From NCBI GenBank assembly GCA_964399955.1, contig CAYNST010000006.1, forward strand, positions 7,103 to 59,557: DNA of 52,455 bases. The letters are read 5' to 3'. This DNA comes from an uncultured Cellvibrionaceae bacterium. GTDB lineage: Bacteria > Pseudomonadota > Gammaproteobacteria > Pseudomonadales > Cellvibrionaceae. This document shows positions 6,094 to 26,767 of the stretch, piece after piece. Numbering within the stretch: the first letter of the stretch is position 1; every line of letters starts with the position of its first letter. Position numbers and translations under genes: made by a program. A model generated the notes under the pieces. It worked only from the letters and a program-made list of their open reading frames with translations. It did no database searches and was not told the DNA's origin.

Positions 6094-6118
6094 TTCATAA
6101 TCACACAAAGGAGTTTGT

Positions 6119-8212: not shown

Positions 8213-8252
8213 CGAGTTCACGCAGGAGCACCCTCACCTACAAGGAGTCATC

Positions 8253-8750: not shown

Positions 8751-8763
8751 CAGCGGGTAACTT

Positions 8764-8800: not shown

Positions 8801-8924
8801 GCCCAGGCAAAACTGGACGCGCACCGAACAGCGGCGCAATGAGCGGAATGGTTCTAACGCCTGTGGCAGTGCCACCGCTGTTCACCCCACCCCTCATAGC
8901 CAACTAAAAACCAAGGGAAATCGC

Positions 8925-11900: not shown

Positions 11901-14180
11901 CTGCCCGCGTTGCAGCAAGTGGACCTGCTGCGCTTTGAGCCGGCTGCCCGCGCTTTGGCGCAGGTGTTCTGGTGCGCAATCAGCGGCCCCGCAGCAGCAC
12001 CGTCCGGCAGTTGGCTGGAGCGGGCACAATCCGCTTTGGAGTTAAAGGGCATGTTTGGCGATGCTGCGGCGGCGGACGGCCTGGCCCAGGAGATAGACAC
12101 GACGCTACAGGTTTTTTTGGATCAACACCCGCTACCGGTGCAAGCGGCGGAGATACAGCAGGCGGCGGCCTATCTGGTGGAGGAGTTGGGCCGTGAGCAG
12201 CTGGAGTTTGTGAGCAGTCACTATGCGCAGGAGCTTGCGGATACGCTGGTCTCGTCTGTAGGCGCAACCCGCTGGCGGCGTTTGCAGGCGACGCTTGAGT
12301 CACTGGAGTCCTCACCCGCGCTCGCCTGGCAGCTCTGCAGCAACTGGCTGCAGGGACTGGTGCAGAACAAAGGCCTGCAGCAGCTTGCGCGCTACCTTCC
12401 CGAGGCGTGTGCCTTACTCACTACCGGGCCGCGTCTATCCCGCCGCGCAACAGAGGTGGACCTGGATCTTACTATCAGTGGACTGATGGGGCAGCACGCC
12501 ACGCTTGCGGATCAACAGTTGCGCATCTCCGTTGACGGCTTCCTGGCCCGCCTGCAACGCCACAGGCAGGAGTTTGTGCCGGCTTACAAACACTACCTGC
12601 AATTGCGCCACGAACTGCTTGAGCGCCAGCGCAGGGCGTTGAGGCTGCACGAGTTCAAGGCTCGCCCTCTCAGCTCCTTTGTGCGCAACCGGCTGATCAA
12701 CGAGGCCTATTTGCCCATCATTGGCGACAACTTCGCCAAGCAGATGGGCACGGCCGGTGAGACCAAGCGCTCGGACCTGATGGGACTGCTGATGCTGATC
12801 TCGCCGCCCGGCTACGGCAAAACCACGCTGATGGAATACGTCGCGCACCGCTTGGGCCTGATTTTCATGAAAATCAACTGCCCCTCGCTGGGCCACGAGG
12901 TGACCTCCCTCGACCCGGCCAAAGCGCCCAACAGCACGGCGCAACAGGAGTTGATCAAGCTGAACCTGGCGCTGGAGATGGGCGACAACGTGATGCTTTA
13001 CCTGGACGACATTCAGCACACGGATCCAGAGTTCCTGCAGAAGTTTATCTCACTGTGTGACGGCACCCGGCGCATAGAAGGCGTGTGGCAGGGGCAGAGT
13101 AAAACCTACGACCTGCGTGGCAGAAAGTTCTGCGTGGTCATGGCGGGCAACCCCTATACCGAGTCTGGCGCTGTATTCAAGATTCCGGACATGCTGGCCA
13201 ACCGTGCCGATATCTACAACCTGGGCGATATCCTGGGCGGCATGGAAGAGCCCTTTGCCTTGAGCTACATCGAAAACGGTCTCACCTCCAACGCCGTGCT
13301 GGCACCGCTGGCAACGCGGGACATTGAAGACGTCTACCGGTTTGTGAAAATGGCGCAGGGTGAATCTGTCGCCACCACGGATATGAGCCACGCTTACTCC
13401 AGTGCGGAGGCGAGTGAAATTGTCGGCGTTCTGCAAAAGCTGTTTGCCATTCGCGATGTGGTGCTCAAGGTCAACCAGCAGTATATTCAGTCCGCAGCTC
13501 AGGCGGACCGCTACCGCGTAGAGCCGCCCTTCCGCCTGCAGGGCAGCTACCGCAACATGAACAAGATGGCAGAGAAGGTGCAGGCGGTGATGAACGCGGC
13601 AGAGCTTGAGCAGTTAATTGCCGACCACTATGTGGGCGAAGCGCAGCTTCTGACCACCGGTGCGGAAGAAAACCTGCTGAAGCTGGGTGAGCTGCGCGGC
13701 AGCCTAAGCCAGCAGCAACAGGCGCGCTGGCAGCAAATTAAAGCCGATTTTTTACGCAACAAAGCCATGGGTGGGGACGAGGGCGATGCCGGCCAAAAAA
13801 TAGCCGCGCAGCTGACAGATCTGGTCGCGGGCCTGCAGCACCTTGCAACAAGTGCGGCCAGTTGGACGCAATCCAAAGACCGTACAGAACAGAATCAGGC
13901 CAGTATGCTCACGCAGTTGAAGCAGATTGTTGACGCCGCCCGGCCAGAGGTCAAGGTCATCAACCAGCCGGTTCCCGGGCTGGACACCTTGCTGCAGAAG
14001 CTCACCGACTCCATTGAAAACAGTCTGTACCCCATTGTGCGCAGCATGGACAAAAAGCTGGAGATAGACCTGCGCACCCATTACAAAATGAAAGATATCT
14101 CCCAGCAGTTGGCGGATATCGAACAAAAAATTCAACAGGAACTGGCCGAGCAACGTAGGACTCCACCTGAGGCAAACTGA
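8925..14180 (+). CDS. giant (1751 aa) protein with a C-terminal AAA_5 (MoxR/dynein-related) ATPase domain; function unknown
   Basis: Single uninterrupted ORF with an AAGGGA ribosome-binding site. Walker A LISPPGYGKTTL (~nt 12800), Walker B VMLYLDDIQH (~12996) and VVMAGNPYTESG...ANRADIY (~13140) match the AAA_5 pattern (hhhDEIN / hhh-NP). The N-terminal ~450 aa is non-repetitive. The central ~800 aa is Leu/Gln/Ala/Arg-rich and predicted helical. Confidence 0.85.
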   Translation: MAVIDPDSTQVDQAVAEGGAYEVITKRLTEQGTALRACAAALNQARQQEFGSSEMAVIARVRVRTENNCSPRDIVQVGEHLLFGYNVFIGLKSETEVADVLALFKLQVQGDETDILPVPQADTFLDEPQFVKDFQELYRYYKQTRLLQLRVKDGKLLAAFQIGERLTDTRVFRWSISADGKVIRYIDNRGERDIQLPSAFDFEWHKTSRDQVVNGKHPHVNILDELFVETVGGDLTVKVENNTASGRGIYHEPVDDATQSIDDAEFHYAEVGSLILLKILPYRETAWRYLVFNKLTQEVRRIDAIGSSCVQLPEDHGIVFPGGYYLQTGQYKTFDESSAEMLFKRVIRSPNGEDVLYVFYEPTSGTVGLFAYNLIKKNLQNPLYGDGYALADDGTLVIFVAQEEPTRVHPMQVWRTPFCSDEFASLEPPRQNFFGRIGNAELVRGISDLYAVGRIIDNQSVTLRLYEELQRVALKVFDDHYWIEAEETADAPGLLRTIAQTAELAIDEFEKVQSIRQQSQRALDAASTEQGLLLDSVRAAGWDTAEEYVLALDRIRNQRGHLATIRQYRYINTSKIDALDAVLLEAQHHLSARTLEFLSDEQALLPYLEKIEYFNQAIAATETVAELLPLKEEIQLTAGGLDLLSELLSTLKAGDATERTRIIDAISEVYARLNQSKAQAQHRQNQMGSREAVAQFSAQFKLFSQSITNALGQANTPEACDEQMSRLLIQLEELEGQFADHEQFLSDIVTKREEVFDVFEAHKQRLLDERGRRAQAIFDAGQRVLGSIERRSQKFIEPDPLNTFFAADPLVLKIREFVEQLHQLDNSVKADDLDARLKGLRDQASRALRDKRELFEEGGAVARLGPRHRFNVNTQELDLTLLARNGQLVYHLTGTQYYQPVDEPELERLKPFWSVALASESAEVYRAEFLADEILHAARAQRDGLSLDGLHQALLQGAQLDKLVRDFAAPRYQEGYEKGIHDHDAALILKALLPALQQVDLLRFEPAARALAQVFWCAISGPAAAPSGSWLERAQSALELKGMFGDAAAADGLAQEIDTTLQVFLDQHPLPVQAAEIQQAAAYLVEELGREQLEFVSSHYAQELADTLVSSVGATRWRRLQATLESLESSPALAWQLCSNWLQGLVQNKGLQQLARYLPEACALLTTGPRLSRRATEVDLDLTISGLMGQHATLADQQLRISVDGFLARLQRHRQEFVPAYKHYLQLRHELLERQRRALRLHEFKARPLSSFVRNRLINEAYLPIIGDNFAKQMGTAGETKRSDLMGLLMLISPPGYGKTTLMEYVAHRLGLIFMKINCPSLGHEVTSLDPAKAPNSTAQQELIKLNLALEMGDNVMLYLDDIQHTDPEFLQKFISLCDGTRRIEGVWQGQSKTYDLRGRKFCVVMAGNPYTESGAVFKIPDMLANRADIYNLGDILGGMEEPFALSYIENGLTSNAVLAPLATRDIEDVYRFVKMAQGESVATTDMSHAYSSAEASEIVGVLQKLFAIRDVVLKVNQQYIQSAAQADRYRVEPPFRLQGSYRNMNKMAEKVQAVMNAAELEQLIADHYVGEAQLLTTGAEENLLKLGELRGSLSQQQQARWQQIKADFLRNKAMGGDEGDAGQKIAAQLTDLVAGLQHLATSAASWTQSKDRTEQNQASMLTQLKQIVDAARPEVKVINQPVPGLDTLLQKLTDSIENSLYPIVRSMDKKLEIDLRTHYKMKDISQQLADIEQKIQQELAEQRRTPPEAN

Positions 14181-14219
14181 ATAATCACACCGAAACCTGA
14201 CCGAGGACGGCCCCGAGTT

Positions 14220-14780
14220 ATGAAGCAAGTTCGCCGCAGTGGCATTAGGTTGATTTTGTATCTGCTCGGACTGATGGTGGTTGTGCACATTGTCAACATC
14301 CTGAGCGGCGGCACCCTGGTCCAACTGGGCATACTGCCGCGCGACCCCTCCAGCCTGGTGTTCATCTTCACCGCACCCTTCATCCACGCCAACTGGATGC
14401 ATCTGCTCAACAATTTGTTGGGGTTGGCGGTGTTCAGCGGCTTTTGTCTGCTGAAGGGGGTGCAGTTCTACCTGCGCTCCAGTTTGTTCATCATTGCAGC
14501 AAGTGGGCTGTTGCTGTGGCTGTTTGGCCGGGCGGGCCTGCACGTGGGCGCCAGCGGCTGGATCTTTGGCCTGTGGAGCCTGACCATTGCTCTGGCGGTA
14601 TTCGAGCGCAGTCTGCTGAACATTGTTGTGGCTTTGGTGGTGGTGATCTTCTACGGCGGCATGGCCTTCGGCATGATGCCGAGCAACCCACTGGTGTCTT
14701 TTGAAGGGCATATCTTTGGTGCGCTGGCCGGAGTGGTAGCAGCGGCTTATTACGGCAGGCGTCGCAGGCCCAGGCGCTGA
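14220..14780 (+). CDS. rhomboid family intramembrane serine protease
   Basis: Six TM segments; HANWMHLLNNL, the catalytic GASGWIFGL (GxSG) and the downstream FEGHIFGALAG His motif. Lies 39 nt after the giant ORF on the same strand. Confidence 0.8.
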   Translation: MKQVRRSGIRLILYLLGLMVVVHIVNILSGGTLVQLGILPRDPSSLVFIFTAPFIHANWMHLLNNLLGLAVFSGFCLLKGVQFYLRSSLFIIAASGLLLWLFGRAGLHVGASGWIFGLWSLTIALAVFERSLLNIVVALVVVIFYGGMAFGMMPSNPLVSFEGHIFGALAGVVAAAYYGRRRRPRR

Positions 14781-14804
14781 AACTGTCGTAACTGTCGGGG
14801 GGGG

Positions 14805-14830
14805 GGCAAGGCGGGGCGGCCCGCCTTGCC
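14805..14830. terminator. bidirectional hairpin terminator (11-bp perfect GC stem ggcaaggcggg/cccgccttgcc, 4-nt loop), preceded by a G10 tract at 14797-14806
   Basis: Lies between the convergent rhomboid gene (stop 14780) and a minus-strand small gene (stop 14837). Confidence 0.55.
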
Positions 14831-14836
14831 AGTGTA

Positions 14837-15040
14837 CTACTCGGCCTGTTCGGCTTCGCTGGTTTCTTCCACGGCTTCTGGCGCTGGCTTGGGTTCGGGC
14901 TGCTTCAGCAGTCCTTCTGCCTTCAGTACTTCAACTTTCTTCTCACCGTTGACCGGCTTCTTCTTGGCGTCTTTGACTGCGTAACGGCCATCTTCACGTT
15001 TGAAGATGCTGTACTCGGCAGTTTGTTTGATCTTCTTCAT
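14837..15040 (-). CDS. small Lys/Glu-rich basic protein (hypothetical, 67 aa)
   Basis: AAGGAAAGG ribosome-binding site upstream on the minus strand. MKKIKQTAEYSIFKREDGRYAVKDAKKKPVNGEKK... has protein-like composition. Divergent from hcp. Confidence 0.5.
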   Translation of the reverse strand: MKKIKQTAEYSIFKREDGRYAVKDAKKKPVNGEKKVEVLKAEGLLKQPEPKPAPEAVEETSEAEQAE

Positions 15041-15369
15041 GTGCCTTTCCTTGTGTGTGGGGATAATGGGTACGCCTCTTTGGGCGCCCGGCAGTTTACG
15101 AGTGACGCGGGCAAAAATCCAGAACTTAGCTTACTAATTGTACAATCCGGCAGATTTTTCTTGATCGGGCGTTTGGCTTACAAAACTTGAGGTGAATAGC
15201 TGCAGTTTCGATATTGCAAAACGGTCCGCTTTCACTTATCGTTGCCTGGCCGTTCGGGAACGCCGAAGGGTCTCGCTGAAAGGGCTTTTAGCGAGTATGT
15301 CCTGTCGATACCATCCAGATGGTCATACACCGGAAGCCCGTCAGAACACAAATACTAAGGAGCGATCAA

Positions 15370-15852
15370 ATGGCTATTTATATTGAATACGCAGGTATAC
15401 AAGGAAACGTAACTGCAACCGGTTTTGCGAATCACATCAAAGTCATGTCTGTTCATTTTGGTGTAGGCCGCGGCATCTCCATGGAAGCTGGCAACATGGC
15501 CAACCGTGAAGCCACCCGTCCCAGCCTCAGCGAAATCACCTTCAGCAAGCTTGCTGATATCTCCTCAACCTCTCTGTTCAAAGAATCTGTAACCGGCGCC
15601 GCAGGCAAGCTGGTCAAGATCAAGTTTGTTCAGACTGGTGCAGAGCAGGTTGTGCAGTTCATGGACTACGAACTGGAAGATTGCCTGGTCAGTGGTTACT
15701 CCATCTCTGCCGACGGCGATGGTGACCCGATCGAGACCATCACCTTGAGCTTCGCCAAAATCATGGTTAACTACCACGACTACGACAAAGCCAACGCTGG
15801 CAAAAGCCCACAGCGCGTCGGTTACGATCTTACTGCTGCCAAACCTCTGTAG
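15370..15852 (+). CDS. hcp: type VI secretion tube protein Hcp (TssD)
   Basis: TAAGGAG ribosome-binding site 7 nt upstream. The 160-aa product aligns along its full length with Hcp1 of P. aeruginosa (MAIYIEYAGIQG..., ITFSKLADISST..., ETITLSFAKIMVNY). Immediately upstream of vgrG. Confidence 0.9.
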   Translation: MAIYIEYAGIQGNVTATGFANHIKVMSVHFGVGRGISMEAGNMANREATRPSLSEITFSKLADISSTSLFKESVTGAAGKLVKIKFVQTGAEQVVQFMDYELEDCLVSGYSISADGDGDPIETITLSFAKIMVNYHDYDKANAGKSPQRVGYDLTAAKPL

Positions 15853-16017: not shown

Positions 16018-17901
16018 ATGGGTCAGCTCACACAGGAACATCGCCTGATATCAGTTACCGACTTTGGCCTGGGCAAAGACACGTTTGTCATTACCGGTCT
16101 GGACGGCAGCGAGCACATCTCCGAACTCTTCGAGTTTCAGCTGGACCTCCTTTCTCCAGCACTGGCCATATCGCCGGATAAAGTGATTGGCAAGGCGGCA
16201 ACGGTCGTACTGCACACCCAGCAAGAGCGCGTCTTCCACGGCCTGGTCAAGTCTTTCGGTATCGGCGAGATGGGGCCGCACAATCACCGGCAGTACCGCC
16301 TAACCCTGGTGCCCTGGCTCTGGTTCTTGTCCAAGACGCAAAACTGTCGGGTGTTTCAGAAAAAGAACGTCAAGGAAATTGTCAGTCAAATCTTTGCCGA
16401 CCACAATTTCACCGATTTTGAATTCAAAGCAACCGGTGGGCAAAAGCGCGCATACTGCGTGCAGTACAATGAAAGCGATCTGCATTTTGTCAGTCGTTTA
16501 CTGGAAGAAGAAGGCATAGCCTATTTTTTCCAACACAGTCGCGACAAACACAACCTGATTCTGACGGACAAGTCCGAAACCTTCGAAGAAGTCCCGGAAA
16601 CCAACCTGGAGTTTTCCAAGGGCTCGGCACCCCACGCACAGATCACCGAGTGGCAGCGCCTGCACGAGTTTCGCAAAGGGCAGTGGACGCTTAACGACTA
16701 CGCCTACGAAGAGCCCAACAAAAACCTGCTGGCGCTGGAAAAAACCACCAGCCGTTTCCAAAACAATCAGCGCTTCGAGCACTACGAGTATCCCGGCCAC
16801 TACAGCAGCGCCGGGCGTGAGCGCGCCACAACCCGCCTGCAGGCAGAAGAAACCTTGCGCAACCGCGTGCGCGGCACCAGCGCATGCAGCAGCTTCTGTG
16901 CCGCCGGCCAGTTCCGCCTGGCCAAGCACGACACCGCAGCCGAACAGGGCAAATACGCGTTGGTGAGCGTGCATCACACCGCCACCGACAGCAGTTTTTA
17001 CAGCGGTGAGGCCGGCCAGAGTGGCTACAGTAATCGGTTTGTGTGCATTCCGGCCGACGTCACCTATCGGCCGGAGCCGCGACATCTGAAGCCGCAAATG
17101 CCCGGCCCACAATCTGCTGTTGTAGTCGGGCCCGCAGGAGAAGAGATCTATCTGGATGAGCTGGGCCGCATTAAGCTGCAGTTTCATTGGGACAGGGAAG
17201 GGCAAAAGAACGAGCACAGCTCCTGTTTTGTGCGGGTCATGCAGAGTTGGGCCGGCAATGGTTGGGGCAGTCACTTCATCCCGCGCATTGGTCATGAAGT
17301 AATTGTCAGCTTTCTGGACGGGGACCCGGACCGCCCACTGGTAACCGGCTCGGTCTACAACGGTAAAAACCGGCCGGCGGATTTCTCCAAATCGCAAAGC
17401 GGCATCAAGTCCCGCTCTACCAAGGGTGGCAACGCGCAGAACTTCAACCAACTGCGCTTTGATGACAAAAAAGGCGACGAAGAAATCTACCTGCACGCCG
17501 AAAAAAACCTGGCGCTGCACGTTGAAAACGACGAGACACGCACAGTAGAAAACGACCGCTTCAAAACGGTGCAGGGCAATCAGAGCGAAGAAGTCGGCAA
17601 AAACAAAAGCATTCGCGTGCAGGGCGAGCACAGCGAAGCCATCAGCAAGAACATGACCATTGTCATCGACAAAGACCTGTCGGAGACGGTGGGTGGGTCC
17701 TATACCGAAACGGTCGTCAAGGACTCCATGCATACGGCCAAAACCATTACCTTCAAGGCCGAGAAAGAAATAGTTCTGCAAACCGGCTCTGCCAAAATAG
17801 TTTTGAAAAACAATGGTGATATAACCATCAGCGGGAAAAACATATCCGTAAAAGGATCCGGCAACGTGGTCTTGAAAGGCAGCAAGGTCACCGCCAACTA
17901 A
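16018..17901 (+). CDS. vgrG: type VI secretion spike protein VgrG (TssI), short form without a C-terminal effector extension
   Basis: 627 aa. gp27-like N-terminus (FEFQLDLLS..., YRLTLVPWLWFLSKTQNCRVFQ), a gp5 OB-fold region and a C-terminal beta-helix of repeats (ETVGGSYTETVVKDSMHTAKTITFKAEKEIVLQTGSAKIVLK). Confidence 0.92.
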   Translation: MGQLTQEHRLISVTDFGLGKDTFVITGLDGSEHISELFEFQLDLLSPALAISPDKVIGKAATVVLHTQQERVFHGLVKSFGIGEMGPHNHRQYRLTLVPWLWFLSKTQNCRVFQKKNVKEIVSQIFADHNFTDFEFKATGGQKRAYCVQYNESDLHFVSRLLEEEGIAYFFQHSRDKHNLILTDKSETFEEVPETNLEFSKGSAPHAQITEWQRLHEFRKGQWTLNDYAYEEPNKNLLALEKTTSRFQNNQRFEHYEYPGHYSSAGRERATTRLQAEETLRNRVRGTSACSSFCAAGQFRLAKHDTAAEQGKYALVSVHHTATDSSFYSGEAGQSGYSNRFVCIPADVTYRPEPRHLKPQMPGPQSAVVVGPAGEEIYLDELGRIKLQFHWDREGQKNEHSSCFVRVMQSWAGNGWGSHFIPRIGHEVIVSFLDGDPDRPLVTGSVYNGKNRPADFSKSQSGIKSRSTKGGNAQNFNQLRFDDKKGDEEIYLHAEKNLALHVENDETRTVENDRFKTVQGNQSEEVGKNKSIRVQGEHSEAISKNMTIVIDKDLSETVGGSYTETVVKDSMHTAKTITFKAEKEIVLQTGSAKIVLKNNGDITISGKNISVKGSGNVVLKGSKVTAN

Positions 17902-17919
17902 AATCCGCTGCCCACCCAG

Positions 17920-17962
17920 CAACAGGCGCGCCGCTCACAGCTTGAGAGCGGCGCGCCTGTTG
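17920..17962 (+). terminator. 17-bp perfect GC-rich hairpin (caacaggcgcgccgctc / gagcggcgcgcctgttg, 9-nt loop) directly after vgrG
   Basis: Begins 19 nt after the vgrG stop. No U-tract follows. Confidence 0.45.
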
Positions 17963-18287
17963 CTGTTGAGTCACCGGTAGACCCGTGCTTGCGGGTAAAG
18001 CATGCCCGCACTGGATACACCGCCTCCTGGGCATGGGTGCCAAAAAAGACATTTGCGCGCGTGTTGGGCTTGTACTTTGTATCAATCGCACGTTTAATGA
18101 GCGCCTCGCGCGCCCCACGGCAGGGCTTCAGAGTGCCAGTGAAGTACAGCGGGGTGTGGGGCGACGGCTCACAGGCGGTCTGGGCGGCGCATATTCGCAG
18201 CCAACATGGCTGTTTACCCCAACCCGCCCCGGCCTTGGGCCACAACTTGCCAACGCGAGTTGCCAATCCAGTGTCAACAGCAAGTAG

Positions 18288-19721
18288 ATGTTCAAACCTG
18301 CTATGGATAATCCAGTTAAATTCAATCCTTGCGTACTGCCCCGCTTACGGGCCCGCGTCTATCTGGCGGTGCTGTTGACAGGCCTGATGGCCCTCTTCAG
18401 CGCGGACTTGATGGCACAGGCGCCCAGGGTGACCCCCGCCGACCTGCAGCACATGGATGACGAGCTACAAAAGCGGCTGGACACCTTTTACCGCGAGTGG
18501 CTCAAGAAGGCATCGGCGGAACAGAGGGGCAATCTGCAGACGGTAACAGCCGGTTTGACTGTGCATGAACCGGAACAAGCCCTGCGCCTGGGGTTGCAGC
18601 TGCGCGCCAACCTGGAGGCTTTGCATCAGGCGGCAGACGATGATCTGTATCGCCAGGCCCTGGCGCTGCTCTATGCCATCAATGATACGGCAACGGTCAG
18701 GCGCATCACCGACTTCCTCAACCAGCAGGGTAGCCCTGCGGCGCGGTCCAACAACTATATGCTGCTGGCGGGTTATTATTACGCGCGGCAAAACTGGGCG
18801 GGTGTGCGAGCCGCACTGCAGCGGGTGGACAGCAAATTGCTGCCGGCCGAGCAACAGGGCTATGCCGCACTGCTGCACGGCTACGCACTGCAGGCGTTGA
18901 AGCAGCATCGCGAAGCCGTGAGCTATTATCGCCACCTTCCGGAGGACTCGCCCTTTTTCGCCTACGCCAAGTTGAACGAAGGTACAGCTTATTTGCGCCA
19001 GGGCTGGTGGTCAGAGGCTTTTCTGGAGTTTGAGCAAGCCATCAAGAGCGCGCCCAAAGACAGCGAACTCAAAGATCGTGTGCTCGTCACCCTGGGCTTT
19101 GCGCAGATTCATCACGAATTCTACCGCCTTGCCCGGGCCACCCTGCGCAAGGTAAGCCTGTCCAGCCGGCACGCGCCCAAGGCTCAACTGGGTCTGGGCC
19201 TGGCCGCAACTCACCAGCAGGACTTGCGTCCGGCGCTTAACCTTTTTTTGCACCTGCTGGAAAGCAACAAAGTGGACGCCAGCGTTGATGAGGCCTACTT
19301 GCTGGCGGCCCACGTTTACGAAGAGCTGCAGCAAATGCCCCTGGCGGCAGAGGCTTATCGTCAAGCTATCGCCTTTTATCAGCGCCGCCTGGACGAAACC
19401 GACCGCGCCCGCGCACGTTTACAAGGCACCGGCCAGCCACTGGAGCCATTGCTTGCCGAACTGGAAGCCCAGTCAGAAGAATTCTACGCCACTGCGCAAC
19501 CCATTCCCGAATACCTGCTGGACAATCACCGGCGTTTGCAGGCAATGCAGAACTTGGCGCGAGAGGCGCAATTGAAGGTCACGCTGGGTGACTTGCTGCA
19601 GGGCACCGAGCAGCTACTGCGGTCGCTTGCGCTGGAGTCCATCGAGGTTCGGCAAAGCCTGTTGCACAGCTACATGAGTCAAGCCAAATACCGTCTGGCA
19701 ACCCTTTATGACAATGATTAA
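18288..19721 (+). CDS. secreted TPR-like repeat protein (477 aa)
   Basis: N-terminal hydrophobic segment RVYLAVLLTGLMALFSADLMAQAP, then helical-repeat/TPR-like composition (Ala/Leu/Tyr/Gln periodicity). Its stop overlaps the next gene's start. Confidence 0.55.
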   Translation: MFKPAMDNPVKFNPCVLPRLRARVYLAVLLTGLMALFSADLMAQAPRVTPADLQHMDDELQKRLDTFYREWLKKASAEQRGNLQTVTAGLTVHEPEQALRLGLQLRANLEALHQAADDDLYRQALALLYAINDTATVRRITDFLNQQGSPAARSNNYMLLAGYYYARQNWAGVRAALQRVDSKLLPAEQQGYAALLHGYALQALKQHREAVSYYRHLPEDSPFFAYAKLNEGTAYLRQGWWSEAFLEFEQAIKSAPKDSELKDRVLVTLGFAQIHHEFYRLARATLRKVSLSSRHAPKAQLGLGLAATHQQDLRPALNLFLHLLESNKVDASVDEAYLLAAHVYEELQQMPLAAEAYRQAIAFYQRRLDETDRARARLQGTGQPLEPLLAELEAQSEEFYATAQPIPEYLLDNHRRLQAMQNLAREAQLKVTLGDLLQGTEQLLRSLALESIEVRQSLLHSYMSQAKYRLATLYDND

Positions 19722-22458
19722 ACGCTTTATCTGCAGCACTTTGGCCTTGCCGGTGCTGGTTGCCTGCAGCAGCCAACAGCGGGAGGGGCAAACGCTGGCG
19801 GATATCGATGTGCCCGCACGTATAGCGCGTACTGACCCGAGCGAGGCTGCCGCGCCGGATGAGCAGCGCATAAAATCTGCCTATTACGACTATCTGCGCA
19901 GTGCCGATGCCGCCGACCAGCAGCGCGCCCACGCGGCCTTGCGCATCGCGGAGCTGGAATTGGCCGGAGCCACGCCTGCCAATGAGGCCGAGTTTGAGGC
20001 CAATGTGCGGCGCGCCATCCATTTGCTGCAGACGTCCCTGCGGGATTTCCCCTCGGCGGAGGACAACGACCAACGCTGGTATCAATTGGCCAAGGCCCAC
20101 GACCAGTTGGGCGAGGCCGAGCAGGCCATTGAAGCCCTGCAGCAACTGGTGCGCCTGCACCCGCAAACCGAGCACTATGTAGAAGCCCAATTTCGCATGG
20201 CCGAGCACGCCTTTGTGCACGGTGACTATGACCGCGCCGAAGCCGGTTACAGCGATATACTTGCGGCCACCGACAACCGCGACTTTACTGAAAAAGCGCT
20301 GTTCAAGCGCGGTTGGGCCCAGTTCAAGCAAGAGCGCTTTGATGAAGCTCTGGAGGATTATTTTGCCGCGCTGAACGCCCACCGGTCTGCCGGCAATGGC
20401 CTTGCGGAAGGCGAGGACGCCCTGCTGGACGAATATTTGCGCGCCGTTGCCCTGTCGTTTTTGTACCTGGGCGGCGCACCCGCACTGGCTGAACATTTCG
20501 CCGATAAACCCAATGATCCGTTCGCCTACCGCACCTACATGTCGGTCAGCAACTTGCTGTTGCAACAGCAGCGCTTCAGCGACGCGGTGGCCACCCTGGA
20601 CGCCTACCGCACTGGTTATCCCTATGGCGAGGGCGTAGTGGCGGCCAGCCTGCAGGCATTGAATATCTGGAAAGACGCCAATTTCCGCAGCCGCTACGAG
20701 CAGGCCTTTGCCGACTTTTACACCCAATACCGTCCCGGAGCCAGCTTCTGGCAGCGTGCCGGCAGCAAAGAAGCTGTGCCGGTGGAGGCTCTGCGGGAGA
20801 ACCTGTTGCTCCTGGCCAGTCGTTACCACAACCGCTTTCTGAGTGATGGACAACAGGAGTCCTTCACTCAGGCGGAGCAATGGTACGACCGCTATCTGCA
20901 GAGTTTCACCAACTACGCGCGGCAGGACCAGATCTACCCGCAGTATGCGCAGTTGCTGGAGCGGCGCGGGCTGACCGAGCGGGCCTTCACCATGTACGAA
21001 CGCGCCGCCTTTGACGGCGAAATACTGCTGGATAAAACCTCGGCCTACGCCTGCATCTACCTGTCCGACCGTTTGTATCAAAGCTCGGCACCCCAGGCAA
21101 AAACGCTCTGGCTGGACAAGCACCTGCAATACGCGCAGGCCTACGCCGAGCTTTACCCCAAAGATGCCCAAGCCGTGGCCACGGTGCTCAAAGCCGTGCA
21201 AATGGCCTTCAGCCACGGGCGCCTGCAGCAGACGGTAGAGCTTGCCAACCTGCTGCCGGATGCCGCACCGGCTGAGCGGCGGCTGGAAGTGGGGCTGCTG
21301 AAGGCTCAGGCCCTGTTTGATCTGGCAGAGTATCAGGATGCGGAGCTGGTGTACCGCGATCTGCTGGCGGAGCAGGGCAGTAACAGTCGGGAAGGGCGTG
21401 ACCTGGCTGATAAACTGGCGTTGAGCATTTATCAGCAGGGCCACAGCCTGCGAGATTCAGACGCCGACCTGGCCACCGGTCATTTCCTCCGGGTTTATCA
21501 GACCGTGCCCCAGTCCGAATTGGCACCCACCGCGCTCTACGACGCCACGGCCCTGCTGCTGGCAGCAGCCCAATGGGATCAGGCCATTCATTATTTGAAA
21601 GTATTTTCCCAGGTGTTCCCCGAGCATGTCCTGCAAGTGGATGTGGGTAAAAAACTCTCCGCCGCCTATCTGCAGGCCGACCGGCAACTGGAAGCTGCGC
21701 AGGCCTTCGAGAGCCTTGCACGGGTGGTGGACAATCAGGAAGAACAAATGGCCGCCCTTTGGCAGGCGGCAGAGTTGTACAGCAACAAAGGCGACACCGC
21801 CTCCGCCATTCGCACCTACGAGAGTTACACCGGCCGTTACAAGCGACCCTACCCGCAATATCTGGAAGCCATGCACCGCTTGAGTGAGTTGTACGCGACG
21901 GATAACAGTGTGCAAAGTGACTACTGGTTGCAGCAGATTGTTACCGCCGACAGCACCGCCAACGCATCACTCAAAACCGAGCGCACCGACTTCTTGGCCG
22001 CCAGTGCAGCCTTCACCCTGGCCCGCAAGCGGCTGAACGACTACGACCAGATTGCACTGGTGCATCCATTGAACCAGTCTTTGCAACGCAAAAAAGCCGC
22101 CATGCAAAATGCGGTAAAACTGTTTGGTCTGGCCTCGTCCTACGGCCACCGGGAATTTGTCACCGAGTCCACTTACCATATTGGCAGCATCTACCTGGCG
22201 TTTGCTGCGGCCTTGATGAATTCGGAACGTCCGCGCGGCTTGAATGACGACGAGTTGGAGCAATACAACATCCTGCTGGAAGACCAAGCCTTTCCGTTCG
22301 AGGACCAGGCCATTGAGTTTTACGAGGCCAATCTTGCACGCATTGCCGACGGTCATTTTGACGAATGGCTGCAGCGCTCTCTGGCGCAACTGAGTCAACT
22401 CTTCCCGGCCCGCTACGCGCGCACGGGCAAGGCCGAAACCTTTGTCCAGCAACTGTGA
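19708..22458 (+). CDS. large TPR-repeat lipoprotein (916 aa)
   Basis: Signal peptide with a lipobox (MTMIKRFICSTLALPVLVAC-SSQQ). Long array of TPR-like helical repeats. Overlaps the previous gene by 14 nt, consistent with an operon. Confidence 0.65.
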   Translation: MTMIKRFICSTLALPVLVACSSQQREGQTLADIDVPARIARTDPSEAAAPDEQRIKSAYYDYLRSADAADQQRAHAALRIAELELAGATPANEAEFEANVRRAIHLLQTSLRDFPSAEDNDQRWYQLAKAHDQLGEAEQAIEALQQLVRLHPQTEHYVEAQFRMAEHAFVHGDYDRAEAGYSDILAATDNRDFTEKALFKRGWAQFKQERFDEALEDYFAALNAHRSAGNGLAEGEDALLDEYLRAVALSFLYLGGAPALAEHFADKPNDPFAYRTYMSVSNLLLQQQRFSDAVATLDAYRTGYPYGEGVVAASLQALNIWKDANFRSRYEQAFADFYTQYRPGASFWQRAGSKEAVPVEALRENLLLLASRYHNRFLSDGQQESFTQAEQWYDRYLQSFTNYARQDQIYPQYAQLLERRGLTERAFTMYERAAFDGEILLDKTSAYACIYLSDRLYQSSAPQAKTLWLDKHLQYAQAYAELYPKDAQAVATVLKAVQMAFSHGRLQQTVELANLLPDAAPAERRLEVGLLKAQALFDLAEYQDAELVYRDLLAEQGSNSREGRDLADKLALSIYQQGHSLRDSDADLATGHFLRVYQTVPQSELAPTALYDATALLLAAAQWDQAIHYLKVFSQVFPEHVLQVDVGKKLSAAYLQADRQLEAAQAFESLARVVDNQEEQMAALWQAAELYSNKGDTASAIRTYESYTGRYKRPYPQYLEAMHRLSELYATDNSVQSDYWLQQIVTADSTANASLKTERTDFLAASAAFTLARKRLNDYDQIALVHPLNQSLQRKKAAMQNAVKLFGLASSYGHREFVTESTYHIGSIYLAFAAALMNSERPRGLNDDELEQYNILLEDQAFPFEDQAIEFYEANLARIADGHFDEWLQRSLAQLSQLFPARYARTGKAETFVQQL

Positions 22459-22469
22459 GAACCCATCCT

Positions 22470-23051
22470 GTGACTAAGTTGTTGCGCTGCTCGATTGCCG
22501 TAATCCTGCTGCTGGTTCAATTGACCGGCTGCGGAACCAGCCCGCACAAATCCGGCCAATACGACAGCCTGAACCTGTTAAGCAATACCGAGCGACAAAA
22601 CTACGAGCGGGCACTGGCGCTGCTGGCCGAGGACAGCGCCAGCAGTGCTGAAGGCCTGTTGTTGAACCTGAGCCAGTCGCGCCCCAGCGTGGCGGAGGTT
22701 TGGTTGAATCTGGCCTTGGCGCATTACCACCAGGCTGAATGGGAGCAGGCCCAGCAGGCACTTACTCAATTATTGACGCTGCGCGAAGCCACCCACCAGG
22801 GGCACAACCTGGCCGGGCTGGTGGCGGTGCAGCAAGGGGAGTTTGAACGCGCGCGCCAGCACTACCAGCGCGCCCTTACCCTGCAGCCCAGCTACACCAA
22901 CGCGCTTTTCAATATGGCGTTGCTGCAGGATGTGTACCTGCAGGACATTGAGCAGGCCATGAATTTTTACCAGCGCTATATTGCCCTGGCGCCAGACGAT
23001 GAAGAAACAAAAAACTGGGCCGACAACCTGCAATACAGTTTGCCCGAGTGA
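22470..23051 (+). CDS. small TPR lipoprotein (about 193 aa from the GTG start)
   Basis: The in-frame GTG at 22470 gives MTKLLRCSIAVILLLVQLTGC-GTS (lipobox LTGC). The upstream ATG at 22365 would overlap the previous gene by 94 nt. TPR motifs follow (AEVWLNLALAHYHQAEWEQA, YQRALTLQPSYTNALFNMALL). Confidence 0.55.
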   Translation: MTKLLRCSIAVILLLVQLTGCGTSPHKSGQYDSLNLLSNTERQNYERALALLAEDSASSAEGLLLNLSQSRPSVAEVWLNLALAHYHQAEWEQAQQALTQLLTLREATHQGHNLAGLVAVQQGEFERARQHYQRALTLQPSYTNALFNMALLQDVYLQDIEQAMNFYQRYIALAPDDEETKNWADNLQYSLPE

Positions 23052-23060
23052 GGTAAAACC

Positions 23061-23333
23061 ATGCACGTAAGACATTTGTTTCTATTGCTGCTGCTCATAC
23101 CGCTGTTGCCCGCCCACGCCCAGGAGGTGATTGAGCTGGAAACCACCACCATCAAGGGCAACACCGAGCTGCCCAAATACCTGTATGTGGTGCCCTGGCA
23201 AAACAGTAAAAGCAAAGCCGGCGGAGACCGCAAACTCAAGCTGCCCAACCTGTACGGCGAATACTTCGACCCACTGATGCCGGCCCCTCTGGCTGCCGCG
23301 CACGAGATGGGCGCGCCGGCCATGCCGGACTAA
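23061..23333 (+). CDS. small secreted protein (90 aa, hypothetical)
   Basis: GAGGTAA ribosome-binding site and signal peptide MHVRHLFLLLLLIPLLPAHA-QEV. Last gene of the TPR operon. Confidence 0.5.
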   Translation: MHVRHLFLLLLLIPLLPAHAQEVIELETTTIKGNTELPKYLYVVPWQNSKSKAGGDRKLKLPNLYGEYFDPLMPAPLAAAHEMGAPAMPD

Positions 23334-23356
23334 TCTGCAACCAAAAAGGCGTCACT

Positions 23357-24103
23357 CTAGCGCCCACCCGATACATCCAGCAGCGCGCCGGTGACATAAC
23401 CGGCGCCGTCACCGGCCAGCCACATGATGGCCTCGGCCACTTCGTCTGCACTGCCAACCCGCTGCATGGGGATACTCTTGTGGAGCCTTTCTGCTCGGCC
23501 GCTGTCGCCGCCCTTGGCGTGAATGGGCGTGTCGATCAGCCCCGGTCGCACCGCGTTTACCCGAATACCCTGGTCCGCCACTTCTTTGGCCAGCCCCTGC
23601 GTGAAGGTGTCAATTGCGCCTTTGCTGGCGGCATAATCCAGATATTCGTGGGGCGAGCCGAGGCGCGCAGCGGCGGAAGATACATTGACAATGGCACCGC
23701 CGCGACCGCCGTGGCGAAACGCCATCTGCCTGACGGCTTCGCGTGAGCAAAGAAAACTGCCCAGCACGTTTACTTCAAAAACGTCGCGGATGCGTTGGGC
23801 GCTGTAGTCCTCGATCGGCATGGAAGGAGCGACGACGCCCGCGTTGTTGATGAGTACCGACACCTGGCCCAGGTGCTGCGCCACATCCGCAAACAAGCCT
23901 ACCACTGCGGTTTCTTCCCTGAGGTCGGCTTGGCGGGCGATCACCCGCGCGCCGCCATCGGCCAACTCATCGCGCAATGCCAGGGCTGCCGACTCGTTAC
24001 TGCCATAGTGCAGACAAAGACTGTAACCCTGCCGCGCCGCCAACCTGGCCACCGCCGCACCTATGCCGCCGGAAGCGCCCGTTATCAAGATGATGTTGTC
24101 CAT
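23357..24103 (-). CDS. SDR family NAD(P)-dependent oxidoreductase
   Basis: TGASGGIGAAVA Rossmann motif, NNAG, and a catalytic YxxxK within YAASKGAID. Lies 27 nt downstream of clpV on the same strand. Confidence 0.85.
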   Translation of the reverse strand: MDNIILITGASGGIGAAVARLAARQGYSLCLHYGSNESAALALRDELADGGARVIARQADLREETAVVGLFADVAQHLGQVSVLINNAGVVAPSMPIEDYSAQRIRDVFEVNVLGSFLCSREAVRQMAFRHGGRGGAIVNVSSAAARLGSPHEYLDYAASKGAIDTFTQGLAKEVADQGIRVNAVRPGLIDTPIHAKGGDSGRAERLHKSIPMQRVGSADEVAEAIMWLAGDGAGYVTGALLDVSGGR

Positions 24104-24130
24104 TGACGACTCTCGGTGCGGGGGACTGTG

Positions 24131-26767
24131 TTATTGCAGCTGGTAGGCAAATTCGCCCTCTTCGCTGCAATCAATATGGATGGACTGGATACCGCTGCCT
24201 TCCGCCATCTTGGCCAGGCAGGCTTCTGCCAGGGCCGGCAGCAAAGAGCGGTTCAGAATATTCTCGATATTGCGTGCGCCGGTGTCGGTCTCCTGGCTGC
24301 GGGCCAGAATGTGCAGCAGTACGTCTTCGGCGTAGGTCAATTGCGCGTTGTAAGTGCTGCGCACGCGGCGCTCCAGGCGCTGCATATTGATTTCACAGAT
24401 TTTCAACAAGTCTTCGTCGGCCAGCGGGTAATAGGGGATAACGGCGGTGCGACCCAGAAACGCCGGCTTGAAGTGGCGCAACAACTGCGGGCGGAAGTTA
24501 TCCAGCAGTACCTCCGGGTCTGGCCGTTCTTCGCTGGCGGCGCAAAGGGCGCGGATGTGTTCTTCACCGGCGTTGGAGGTCATGATGATCACGGTATTGC
24601 GGAAGTCGATATCGCGGCCTTCACCGTCTTTGATGGTGCCCTTGTCAAACAGGTTGTAAAACACATCCTGCACGCCCGGATGGGCTTTTTCCATTTCGTC
24701 GAACAGCACCACGCTGTAAGGTTTGCGTCGCACGGCCTCGGTCAGCACACCGCCTTCGCCGTAACCGACGTAGCCGGGAGGGGAGCCGAGCAGCATGGAA
24801 ATTTTATGTTCTTCCTTGAATTCCGACATGTTGATGACGGTGAGATTCTGCTCGCCGCCGTAGAGTACATCTGCCAGCGCCAGTGCGGTTTCGGTTTTGC
24901 CCACGCCGCTGGGGCCCACCATAAAAAATACGCCGATGGGTTTGCGCACATCGGTCAGTCCCGCCCGCGCGGTGCGAATACTTTGGCCTATGGCCTCCAG
25001 TGCGTGGCGCTGACCAATAACGCGTTCATTGAGTGCGTCGGGCAAGCGCAGTATCTGCTGGATCTCGTCGGCCAGCATTTTACCTACGGGAATACCGGTC
25101 CAGTTGGCCACCACTTCTGCCACCGCCTGACCGTCGACGTTGATCTTGATCATCGGCTCCTCGCGCTGAACGGCGGCAAGTTCGGCCATCAAACCGTGCA
25201 GGCGATGTTTGTCGGGCTGGTCGTCGTCGGATTCCAGGCCGTTGTCAAAGGCGTGTTCCAGCCGCTCTTGAACGGCGTGGATGTCCGCCACAATTTTTTT
25301 CTCCATGGACCACTGCTCTTCCTGCAGTACCAGTTTTTCTTCCAGCTGGGACTGTTCCACTCGCAGCGCTGCCAGGGCCTCTTCACTGCCACCAATGGCG
25401 GCGTTCTCCCGCGCCAGGGACTGGCGGTTGTTCTGGCACTGAGTGATGCGGCGGCGGGTGTCTTCGATGGCTGCAGGCGTGGCGCTTTGGCTTAGTGAAA
25501 CCCGGGCACAGGCGGTATCCAGCAGGCTAACGCATTTATCCGGCAGCTGGCGCGCGGTGATATAACGGCTGGACAGGCGCACGGAGTCCACAATCGCCTC
25601 GTCCAATACCCGCACCTTGTGGTGGCGCTGCAGCATGGGCGCCATTGCGCGCATCATGTCAATGGCGCGTGCCTCGCTGGGCTCCTCTACTTTGACTACT
25701 TGGAAGCGGCGGGTCAGCGCGGGGTCGCGCTCAAAGTATTTCTTGTACTCTGCCCAGGTGGTGGCGGCAATGGTGCGCAGCTCGCCGCGCGCCAAGGCAG
25801 GTTTGAGGAGATTGGCCGCATCGCCCTGGCCTTCTTTGCCACCGGCGCCAATCATGGTGTGCGCCTCGTCAATAAACAGTATGACCGGCTCGGCGGAGTT
25901 TTTGACTTCACTGATCACGGATTTCAGGCGGTTTTCAAACTCGCCTTTGACGCTGGCGCCGGCCTGCAGCAGGCCCAGATCCAGGCTGCGCAGGGCCACA
26001 CCCTTGAGTGGATCGGGCACGTCGCCCTGGGCAATTCGCAGCGCCAGCCCCTCGACCACTGCGGTTTTACCCACGCCCGCCTCACCGGTCAGTATTGGGT
26101 TGTTCTGCCGTCTGCGGATGAGGACATCAATGATCTGGCGAATTTCCTCGTCGCGGCCAAGTACCGGGTCGATGCGGCCGCTTTTGGCCTGAGCCGTGAG
26201 GTTGATGGTGTATTTGTCCAGGCTGGGGGTTTTGCTGGGTGCGCCTGTGGGCGCTTCGCTGCTGTCGCTGACCGACTCGGCAGAGCTGGACGATTTGCCT
26301 GTGCTTTTGCTGCGCATGTGGCGCACGGCCTCACGCAAGGCTTCGGCGGGCAGGCGCTGCAGGGCCTCGCTGGCTACACTGCGGCGCAGGCCGTCGTCGC
26401 TGATCAAGGCGGCCAGCAGGTGGCCGGGGTGAACGGCGGCGGCGCCAAATTCAATGGAGGCCAACAGCCAGGCGTTTTTGCACAGGTCCACAATGGTGGG
26501 GGATAGCGCCGGTGCACGGGTGTTGCCGGTCTGCAGGCGGTCCAGCTCCCGGTTCAGGTTTTGCAATACGCGCGCAGGCTCCAGGTCAAATGCCTGCAAC
26601 AGTCCGCGCAGGTCGCCGTTGTCCAGCTCCAGCAGTTTTACCAGCCAGTGCTCCAACTCCACATTGTAGTGGCTGCGAGACAGACAAAGGCCTGCGGCGC
26701 CTTCCAGAGATACGCGGCAGGCTTCGTCGAGTGAGCCAACCAGAGATTTCAGATCAATGTTCATCAT
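24131..26767 (-). CDS. clpV: T6SS AAA+ ATPase ClpV (TssH)
   Basis: 878 aa with a Clp N-domain and two AAA modules (GEAGVGKTA; GPSGVGKTETALALA). The start overlaps the tssG stop (ATGA). Confidence 0.93.
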   Translation of the reverse strand: MMNIDLKSLVGSLDEACRVSLEGAAGLCLSRSHYNVELEHWLVKLLELDNGDLRGLLQAFDLEPARVLQNLNRELDRLQTGNTRAPALSPTIVDLCKNAWLLASIEFGAAAVHPGHLLAALISDDGLRRSVASEALQRLPAEALREAVRHMRSKSTGKSSSSAESVSDSSEAPTGAPSKTPSLDKYTINLTAQAKSGRIDPVLGRDEEIRQIIDVLIRRRQNNPILTGEAGVGKTAVVEGLALRIAQGDVPDPLKGVALRSLDLGLLQAGASVKGEFENRLKSVISEVKNSAEPVILFIDEAHTMIGAGGKEGQGDAANLLKPALARGELRTIAATTWAEYKKYFERDPALTRRFQVVKVEEPSEARAIDMMRAMAPMLQRHHKVRVLDEAIVDSVRLSSRYITARQLPDKCVSLLDTACARVSLSQSATPAAIEDTRRRITQCQNNRQSLARENAAIGGSEEALAALRVEQSQLEEKLVLQEEQWSMEKKIVADIHAVQERLEHAFDNGLESDDDQPDKHRLHGLMAELAAVQREEPMIKINVDGQAVAEVVANWTGIPVGKMLADEIQQILRLPDALNERVIGQRHALEAIGQSIRTARAGLTDVRKPIGVFFMVGPSGVGKTETALALADVLYGGEQNLTVINMSEFKEEHKISMLLGSPPGYVGYGEGGVLTEAVRRKPYSVVLFDEMEKAHPGVQDVFYNLFDKGTIKDGEGRDIDFRNTVIIMTSNAGEEHIRALCAASEERPDPEVLLDNFRPQLLRHFKPAFLGRTAVIPYYPLADEDLLKICEINMQRLERRVRSTYNAQLTYAEDVLLHILARSQETDTGARNIENILNRSLLPALAEACLAKMAEGSGIQSIHIDCSEEGEFAYQLQ

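Follow-up and report, generated by a model that had tools for sequence, protein, structure and literature searches.

A putative Tol/Ton/Agl-type trans-envelope complex divided by a type VI secretion gene cluster in an uncultured Cellvibrionaceae bacterium

The 52,455-nucleotide stretch of DNA analysed here (contig CAYNST010000006.1, positions 7,103 to 59,557, of assembly GCA_964399955.1 from an uncultured Cellvibrionaceae bacterium), called the window throughout, contains a cluster of type VI secretion system (T6SS) genes. Four genes for exported proteins, T1 to T4, of which T1-T3 encode tetratricopeptide repeat (TPR) proteins, are located 3′ of vgrG, and genes for an ExbB/ExbD-type motor with a TonB-family transducer follow the kinase gene ppkA at the far end of the cluster. 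The features of these two gene sets are as follows (aa, amino acids; ORF, open reading frame; SPI, signal peptidase I).

17917-17965, + strand: hairpin with a perfect 20-bp stem (17917-17936 / 17946-17965) and a 9-nt loop, from sequence inspection
18288-19721, + strand: T1, secreted TPR protein, 477 aa, SPI-type leader, GltC-like
19708-22458, + strand: T2, TPR lipoprotein, 916 aa, GltD-like, candidate central scaffold
22470-23051, + strand: T3, TPR lipoprotein, about 193 aa (ORF opens at 22365, 228 aa), GltE-like
23061-23333, + strand: T4, small secreted protein, 90 aa, candidate "additional" core-complex subunit
44820-47390, + strand: ppkA, Ser/Thr kinase with a C-terminal (periplasmic) FGE-sulfatase-like domain (Pkinase and PF03781)
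47627-47887, + strand: small ORF between ppkA and exbB, 86 aa, no signal peptide, no Pfam match
47947-48567, + strand: ExbB/TolQ/AglR-like proton channel subunit, 206 aa, TolQ and ExbB model matches
48580-49164, + strand: ExbD/TolR/AglQ-S-like subunit 1, 194 aa, TolR and ExbD model matches
49154-49660, + strand: ExbD/TolR/AglQ-S-like subunit 2, 168 aa, TolR model match
49758-50735, + strand: GltG/GltJ-like TonB-family transducer, 325 aa

A first-pass annotation had described the block at 18288-23333 as four linked genes for exported proteins of 477, 916, about 193 and 90 residues, all with signal peptides and none with a recognisable enzymatic motif, and this description is upheld. T1 and T4 have SPI-type leaders (ending in RLRARVYLAVLLTGLMALFSADLMA/QA and MHVRHLFLLLLLIPLLPAHA/QE, respectively), while T2 and T3 have lipoboxes (LVA/C-SSQ, with Ser as the +2 residue, and LTG/C-GTS). 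In the case of T3, a signal peptide is obtained solely from GTG 22470 or the TTG codons at 22479 and 22482, giving a protein of about 193 aa. Across about 20 homologous loci, T2 and T3 retain their lipobox cysteines, just as T1 and T4 retain their SPI-type leaders. Among T6SS-linked loci (class A, see below), the T2 lipobox is present in 19 of the 20 examined, the remaining ORF stopping at a contig end, and T3 N-termini carry the lipobox cysteine as well. The overlapping starts and stops reported at first are found at the T1/T2 junction (14 nt) but not at the other two, which are gaps of about 12 nt (T2-T3) and 9 nt (T3-T4); the sequence GAGG is placed 8 nt ahead of the T4 ATG. Since T2 has full-length homologues at 25-53% identity in hundreds of genomes, T1-T4 can be regarded as real genes.

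In searches of Pfam and NCBIfam, T1-T3 gave sub-threshold generic TPR matches (YbgF, PilW, PrsT, BamD, PorW, GltE), T4 gave zero matches and no catalytic, toxin or adaptor domain was found in any of the four, in keeping with the early view of a TPR scaffold set rather than toxin, immunity or adaptor proteins. An AlphaFold2 model of T2 predicts an all-alpha solenoid (mean pLDDT 87.4) after a disordered tether of 48 residues. Searching the PDB with this model via Foldseek retrieved generic long TPR scaffolds (Ctr9, Ski3, IFT-A) at TM scores of 0.1-0.3 as well as one chain of a Campylobacter flagellar periplasmic scaffold, matches that are uninformative beyond "scaffold". The mature N-terminus of T4 bears a family motif, IELETTTIKGNTELPKYLYVVPW. 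Its general form, [ED]LPKxLYxVPW after LxLxTTxIxGN, is kept in 17 T6SS-linked and more than 36 ExbBD-linked loci, such that T4 and its counterparts in T6SS-free operons (class B) share the mature N-terminus LxLxTTxIxGNxELPKxLYxVPW, which is followed by a second motif specific to the class.

T1 starts 386 nt downstream of the vgrG stop codon. The hairpin in this spacer begins 16 nt past that stop and does exist as first proposed, albeit with a slightly larger extent (17917-17965 instead of 17920-17962). No T-run follows it in the sequence, and a terminator scan, itself at chance level overall, missed it on the + strand. A sigma-70 promoter scan of 17700-24200 found no promoter.

The second gene set (47947-50735) was revealed by tblastn of the genes of a T6SS-free homologous operon, L004, against the window. 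ExbB of the window is 60% identical to that of the L004 operon, the two ExbD proteins are 45% and 42% identical to ExbD1 and ExbD2, respectively, and the GltG-like protein is 35% identical to a 336-aa protein of the same operon (E 3e-41). The GltG-like protein consists of one transmembrane helix, a Pro-rich linker and a TonB-type C-terminal domain, and it passes the cut-offs of NF033768 (AgmX/PglI C-terminal domain; 78.2 bits, cut-off 40) and TIGR01352 (TonB C-terminal; 35 bits, cut-off 27.1). Partial GltJ and GltG matches remain below the cut-offs of the full-length equivalogs, and the cytoplasmic FHA/GYF parts are absent. A metagenome scan with this protein returned one locus, of the canonical type.

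Gene by gene and in the same order, T1-T4 are homologous to the TPR part of the canonical T6SS-free operons. T1 aligns with the 632-aa first TPR protein of the ExbBD-linked operon (30% over 229 aa, E 9e-15), T2 with its 1140-aa protein (35% over 870 aa, E 1e-122) and T3 with the C-terminal TPR region of the latter, to which it is fused there (32% over 149 aa, E 2e-13). The core complex defined by Luciano et al. (2011, PLoS Genet 7:e1002268) comprises aglR/Q/S, gltC, gltD, gltE, gltG and one extra gene; it forms a single operon in Gammaproteobacteria, where its function was unknown, with CJA_3312-3319, Sde_2954-2961 and TERTU_1849-1856 as examples (Table S3 therein). The same table assigns the T1 position to GltC (MXAN_2541), the T2 position to GltD (MXAN_4870) and the T3 position, a separate gene of 160-260 aa, to GltE (MXAN_4869). 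The locus tags in the table leave a gap after the GltE-like and before the AglR-like gene, into which T4 fits, and T4 matches the "additional gene", for which no homologue exists in Myxococcales (Luciano et al. 2011). A small secreted subunit of this kind is part of every gammaproteobacterial core complex. Because sizes and gene order match Table S3, T1, T2 and T3 can be called GltC-, GltD- and GltE-like, with T4 being the extra gene. GltF, by comparison, was regarded as a later, deltaproteobacterial acquisition (Luciano et al. 2011).

T4 and exbB are neighbours in the canonical operon, and the T6SS genes of the window occupy exactly the interval between these two genes. With the motor directly after ppkA at the far end of the cluster, the T6SS genes thus lie between two halves of one system, 24 kb apart. 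A single operon, which defines the core complex, is found neither here nor in two other genomes with both halves on one contig (L002/L088 and L003/L091). We consider it probable that T1-T4 and the distant motor are the two halves of a Tol/Ton/Agl-type trans-envelope complex that serves as a T6SS accessory. T1-T4 would then, in all likelihood, be the outer-membrane-anchored periplasmic half, and ExbB, the two ExbD proteins and the GltG-like protein the inner-membrane half. A dedicated role in the T6SS is the most speculative step of this proposal, as function is predicted here from sequence and gene context. The first-pass annotation had considered an unrelated envelope system inserted into the T6SS locus; the kinship to an independent envelope system is borne out, but a block whose partner half lies on the other side of the T6SS genes is not an unrelated system dropped into their midst.

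The distribution of the two halves lends weight to this proposal. A scan with T2 as the query, using one genome per species, yielded at least 574 relatives; the best 80 loci of these, plus loci that were looked up, were scored for their context by tblastn with the T6SS proteins of the window and the L004 genes. A tree of 82 GltD-like sequences contains two classes. Class B (60 of the 82; 30-36% identical to T2) represents the T6SS-free operon and has an order of eight genes: a 206-aa secreted protein, a T1-like protein (~630 aa), a T2-like protein, a T4-like protein, ExbB, ExbD, ExbD and a TonB-like protein (~330 aa), with T3 either fused to the T2-like protein or encoded separately. Its TonB-like protein passes the NCBIfam cut-off for the AgmX/PglI C-terminal domain and gives partial GltG and GltJ matches. 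Class A (22 of the 82; 36-53% identical to T2) includes members from Cellvibrionaceae, Aliikangiella and Colwellia and has consistently lost the 206-aa first gene. T6SS genes flank 19 class A loci, i.e. 18 of the 22 tree members plus L043, which was left out of the tree due to its incomplete T2. Three of the four remaining tree members lie on contigs too short for a decision, and the fourth is L026. Occurrence of the block without a T6SS, raised at the outset as a possible refutation, is therefore widespread in the paralogous class B, but not in the orthologous class A.

The commonest order in class A is tssC-tssC2-tssE-tssF-tssG-clpV-T1-T2-T3-T4, on one strand and with short spacers. The block comes immediately after clpV, in the same orientation, in L003, L009, L012, L015-L021, L024 and L043; vgrG and hcp are then several kb away or on the other strand, or vgrG is absent. 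The block comes after vgrG only in the window and its three closest relatives, L001, L002 and L007, where 5-7 kb of cargo genes (DUF6484, DUF2169, PAAR-like) separate the two. As the block is mostly found 3′ of clpV, it travels with T6SS structural genes and not with vgrG; its place in a presumed cargo slot is incidental.

The motor half recurs in an equally defined setting. Look-up of close ExbB and PpkA homologues retrieved L087, L088, L089, L090 and L091, which share with the window the string tssM-tagF-pppA-ppkA(FGE)-small ORF-ExbB-ExbD-ExbD-GltG-like. The motor is thus located 3′ of ppkA in six of six T6SS clusters examined, including that of the cultured Teredinibacter turnerae (L089), whose ExbB (P0094, 205 aa) is 78% identical to ExbB of the window. 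TERTU_1670-1672 were listed as AglR/Q/S homologues in Table S3 of Luciano et al. (2011) and lie beside the T. turnerae T6SS, TERTU_1639-1668 (Yang et al. 2009), yet neither paper ties them to it. By size and flanking genes, TERTU_1670 (205 aa) is taken to be the L089 ExbB, and TERTU_1670-1672 are taken to correspond to the L089 motor genes. The small ORF at the ppkA-exbB junction (62-91 aa) was called in all of L087-L091, and its N-terminal 44 residues are kept in the four aligned sequences (window, L087, L088 and L089), with Y17, Y27, R31, L35-D36, D39 and N43-G44 among the invariant residues. As a further observation on this junction, an ExbB motor lies 3′ of ppkA-FGE in every context examined, and the PpkA-FGE fusion is present in 120 of 120 homologues among the matches listed, out of 2969 with E<=1e-30.

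Both halves are found on one contig in the window, in Ga0606641_0000004 (L002 and L088) and in JBFPEB010000910.1 (L003 and L091). In the last of these, each of two divergent T6SS gene strings ends in one half of the complex, and in most genomes each half occupies the 3′ end of one of two such strings. In L090, hcp, vgrG and cargo come after the motor. One copy of each kind is present in the metagenome-assembled genome (MAG) JAADIL01, L017 being linked to a T6SS and L044 being a complete T6SS-free operon. L026 (OZ246012.1, a complete chromosome, 2498-13612) has GltG-like, ExbD, ExbD, ExbB and ppkA-FGE genes on the - strand, divergent from T1-T4, so that ppkA adjoins the motor in L026 as it does in L087-L091.

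Phylogeny places the two halves on the same path. In a neighbour-joining tree of the 82 GltD-like sequences, class A, including L026, is separate from class B with a bootstrap support of 100/100, and in a neighbour-joining tree of concatenated ExbB, ExbD, ExbD and GltG sequences, the T6SS-linked motors and L026 form one clade, again at 100/100, nested among class B. These matching splits indicate that the halves evolved together, as a single paralogue of the free operon. Despite its stand-alone arrangement, L026 nests inside the T6SS-linked clade.

How such a complex might work can be outlined by analogy with an AlphaFold-based model of the Myxococcus Agl-Glt machinery, in which GltD is the central pillar, a long periplasmic segment of GltG lies in a crevice of GltD, GltE is bound at the C-terminal end of GltD, GltC provides the connection to the outer membrane and a beta-strand of GltF is paired with the TonB-like domain of GltG. 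By this analogy, a proton-driven ExbB/ExbD unit would act on the GltG-like protein, whose linker would span the peptidoglycan and dock on the T2 solenoid. T3 would cap the C-terminus of T2, T1 and the lipid anchors would tether the assembly beneath the outer membrane and the TonB-like domain may be the pairing partner of the strand motif at the N-terminus of T4. The complex could then inform PpkA, through its periplasmic FGE-like domain, of the state of the envelope or of contact and thereby gate the PpkA/PppA/Fha/TagF checkpoint, functionally replacing TagQRST, which plays this part in the H1-T6SS of Pseudomonas aeruginosa. We lean tentatively towards this regulatory version, because the kinase is the one neighbour retained in every arrangement; L026, which keeps ppkA beside the motor without nearby T6SS structural genes, likewise points to a link with the kinase. 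In broader terms, an H1-like T6SS lineage of marine Gammaproteobacteria, spanning Cellvibrionaceae (among them Teredinibacter), Aliikangiella, Colwellia and numerous MAGs, may have recruited a complete Tol/Ton/Agl-type motor driven by the proton motive force, together with a Glt-like TPR shaft, as an integral accessory, a scenario that we put forward with similar reserve.

A role in the T6SS that is mechanical rather than regulatory is somewhat unlikely. The motor and TPR shaft would here aid assembly of TssJLM through the peptidoglycan, open the outer membrane or position firing sites, as Agl-Glt does at focal adhesions. T1-T4 extend the structural string from tssBC to clpV in most genomes, and the related Agl-Glt, Tol-Pal and Ton systems are force transducers. 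In addition, TssL of the window consists of the DotU domain alone, without a peptidoglycan-binding extension. Yet no neighbour of the motor is closer or more persistent than ppkA, even in L026, and related T6SSs such as that of P. aeruginosa H1 function without such a motor.

It is unlikely that the locus simply harbours a core complex of the usual kind, whose envelope function is independent of the T6SS and into which a T6SS island was inserted once between T4 and exbB, the linkage then being inherited or moved horizontally without any coupling. Such a history would fit the sixty T6SS-free homologous operons that occur within the best 80 loci, the module of L026, which has ppkA but lacks nearby T6SS structural genes, and the upstream spacer and hairpin that the TPR half of the window has to itself. 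However, the linkage has outlasted several rearrangements: the block may follow clpV, follow vgrG and cargo or face vgrG convergently, the motor of L090 precedes hcp-vgrG, and the linkage spans Cellvibrionaceae, Aliikangiella and Colwellia. Short spacers join the halves to the ends of T6SS gene strings, both halves are intact at 36-53% identity, the 206-aa first gene is consistently lost in the linked clade, and one MAG retains a complete separate copy as well (L017 and L044). Judged by comparative genomics, the tie to the T6SS is the opposite of a chance insertion.

Several points nevertheless weigh against such a complex and deserve to be set out together. The evidence for T6SS coupling is genomic throughout. 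Since the free operon is far commoner (60 of 82), the family must have a T6SS-independent function, which the linked copy may keep. L026 has ligA, zipA and smc beyond the module and no T6SS structural gene within 10 kb, which shows that the module and ppkA can occur away from such genes. The 386-nt spacer and the strong hairpin mean that the TPR half need not be co-transcribed with the T6SS genes. Flanks were examined over 10 kb, MAG contigs account for many of the loci, the trees are all of the distance-based neighbour-joining type and recurrence in T. turnerae covers the motor half (L089). As for the names given to the TPR proteins, the kinship of T1-T3 to GltC, GltD and GltE is suggested by way of the published assignment of a paralogous operon. 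T3 reaches 32.9 bits against the GltE model NF033758 (cut-off 225), a scan of 31 GltD-like family members found no GltC or GltD model in NCBIfam, and TPR proteins cross-match many families.

Two readings that follow from the position or the repeats of the block can be set aside with more assurance. That T1-T4 are VgrG cargo, i.e. adaptor, effector or immunity proteins, might be suggested by their being the first genes 3′ of vgrG in the window, but is highly improbable: true cargo sets intervene in the closest relatives, the block mostly follows clpV and these Sec- or Lol-exported proteins, which lack toxin or adaptor domains, are represented by orthologues beside ExbBD in T6SS-free operons. 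This candidate was rejected since adjacency to vgrG, PAAR or adaptor genes (DUF4123, DUF1795, DUF2169) is not conserved and all four proteins carry Sec or lipoprotein signals. Equally remote is a PEP-CTERM/exosortase (PrsT-like) or polysaccharide-export TPR system, a resemblance pointed out in the first-pass annotation: T3 does match TIGR02917 (E 1.9e-12) and L002 has an exosortase/Rce1-like gene after T4, but the T3 score is 45.9 bits against a cut-off of 312.2 and covers 130 of 899 positions of plain TPR, T2 has no match, other TPR models match T3 at similar E-values (PilW slightly better), the gene after T4 varies between loci and the window cluster has no exosortase, PEP-CTERM or polysaccharide gene.

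Two further identities were tried and discarded, that of Tol-Pal CpoB/YbgF because T2 falls below the TIGR02795 cut-off and tolB/pal context is missing, and that of the TagQRST sensor module because no ABC-type gene lies beside ppkA and the FGE domain is fused to PpkA. In comparison with Tol-Pal/CpoB and ExbBD-TonB, the window system shares an ExbB/ExbD-type channel, a TolA/TonB-like transducer and YbgF-like TPR units in T2, homologues of which are labelled "TolA-binding protein" by JGI. TIGR02795 (YbgF/CpoB TPR) is matched by 31 of 31 family members below its cut-off; T2 itself has repeated partial TPR matches amounting to 48.4 bits (cut-off 90.1). In contrast to these systems, TolB, Pal and a TonB-dependent receptor are lacking, with tolB and pal not nearby, all matches stay far under equivalog cut-offs, two distinct ExbD paralogues are present and the TPR proteins exceed CpoB in size by a factor of 4-8.

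The H1-T6SS of P. aeruginosa and the window cluster both have Fha, PpkA, PppA and TagF. The proposed complex also resembles TagQRST in being an exported accessory set that contains outer-membrane lipoproteins and adjoins ppkA at the cluster edge. However, it is unrelated in sequence to TagQ/S/T and has a proton-channel motor and TPR scaffolds instead of an ABC transporter. Between hcp and the GltG-like gene, every ORF of >=150 aa taken as a gene has an assignment, none of them ABC-type; no TagQ/R/S/T-like gene was found in this interval, and the only FGE-like domain of the cluster is the one fused to PpkA. The periplasmic domain of this PpkA has weak PDB sequence matches to ToxD and PvdO, both of which are FGE-like. 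P. aeruginosa PpkA, by contrast, has a vWA-type rather than an FGE-like periplasmic domain, and TagR is an FGE/SUMF1-like periplasmic protein.

Closest is the gammaproteobacterial core complex, with which the window system shares the gene set and the relative sizes of its proteins (~950-aa GltD-like, ~200-aa GltE-like, ~325-aa GltG-like). It differs in that its halves are split by a 24-kb T6SS cluster rather than joined in a single operon, and in that ppkA and a small cytoplasmic ORF have become constant neighbours of the T6SS-linked copies. With M. xanthus Agl-Glt, it has in common a TolQR-like motor, a TonB-like transducer with an AgmX/PglI-type C-terminal domain, the GltD and GltE TPR proteins, numbered from their mature N-terminal Cys, a secreted TPR protein (GltC) and a small secreted subunit. 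Lacking are the GltA/B/H/K barrels, the CglB adhesin, GltI and the cytoplasmic FHA/GYF domains, and gliding is not expected.

In the literature searched, no publication linking the T6SS to a core-complex or TPR-motor module was found, nor any T6SS that uses an ExbBD/TolQR-type proton motor, nor a paper after 2011 that assigns a function to the core complex outside Myxococcus. The gene family is known (the Agl/Glt core complex), whereas its split, T6SS-embedded and kinase-linked paralogue is undescribed in that literature. Hundreds of proteobacteria that do not glide possess the core complex, from which the gliding and the Nfs sporulation machines of Myxococcus descend; a paralogue wired to a T6SS and a kinase offers a concrete, testable phenotype for it. 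It also bears on how T6SSs with a PpkA/Fha checkpoint but without TagQRST sense the envelope. If the proposal is true, this would be the first T6SS with firing gated or mechanically assisted by an ExbBD-type motor, which might tie the PpkA-Fha checkpoint to the sensing of the envelope or of contact or direct where the apparatus assembles, and it would provide a first function for the orphan complex behind the Myxococcus gliding and spore-coat machines. Genetics are feasible because the arrangement exists in cultured organisms, at least in Teredinibacter species. For annotation, "TPR proteins after vgrG" in such clusters should not be taken as cargo and "ExbB/ExbD/TonB after ppkA" not as iron-uptake genes.

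A few observations on related loci may be added. Directly 3′ of T4, L003 has a second Ser/Thr kinase (13933-15678; 581 aa, weak TPR matches), which is additional to the ppkA-FGE gene ahead of the motor on the same contig (L091). L004 and L005 carry a T6SS-type Fha gene (1-947; FHA and T6SS_FHA_C) about 6.5 kb upstream of the canonical operon, with purL and other housekeeping genes in between, and in L027 and L083 (first ~1.8 kb) Fha was seen as tblastn matches only; the presence of Fha near the operon in this class B sub-lineage may be a coincidence or the edge of another T6SS cluster. In Hahella chejuensis, Table S3 of Luciano et al. (2011) lists a TPR trio without a motor, HCH_02601-02603 (640, 963 and 203 aa), 22 locus tags ahead of a complete core complex (HCH_02626-02634), which could be another split or T6SS-linked case.

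The T6SS cluster itself was delineated by Pfam matches. Within 23357-47390, the - strand carries an SDR gene, clpV, tssG, tssF, tssE, tssC2, tssC, tssB and tssA, and the + strand fha, tssJ, tssK, tssL, tssM, tagF, pppA and ppkA. Individual features outside the two halves are as follows.

14220-14780, + strand: rhomboid-family gene upstream of hcp
15319-15852, + strand: hcp (Pfam)
16018-17901, + strand: vgrG (Pfam)
23357-24103, - strand: SDR gene, in the slot between T4 and the clpV string
30239-31678 and 31746-33239, - strand: the tssC-tssC2 pair, genes for two TssC/VipB sheath paralogues side by side, with 39% identity over 448 aa

The tssC-tssC2 pair is present in the 11 class A loci whose flank extends that far; we know of no described role for a second sheath large subunit. 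In the vgrG region (16018-18287), PAAR, adaptor and effector genes are absent 3′ of vgrG, whereas L001, L002, L007 and L090 have DUF6484-DUF2169-PAAR-like cargo sets at this position. As relatives carry cargo after vgrG, it has apparently been deleted in the window or is located elsewhere. The slot 3′ of T4 varies: it holds the SDR gene in the window, a LigT-like 2′-5′ RNA ligase in L001 (13765-14313) and Cu/Zn superoxide dismutase (SodC) plus the exosortase/Rce1-like protein in L002 (13710-16109).

Upstream of hcp, the rhomboid-family gene has the same position in L001 and L007. Further upstream in the window, all on the + strand, lie a 1751-aa DUF3686/DUF7902/AAA protein of the "ATPase involved in DNA repair" family (8925-14180), preceded by a 644-aa protein with zero Pfam matches (6119-8053), and a proteasome-subunit-like protein (2878-3699) that adjoins an FtsJ/TlyA-type methyltransferase. 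The region of the 1751-aa protein and the genes upstream of it appear unrelated to the T6SS.

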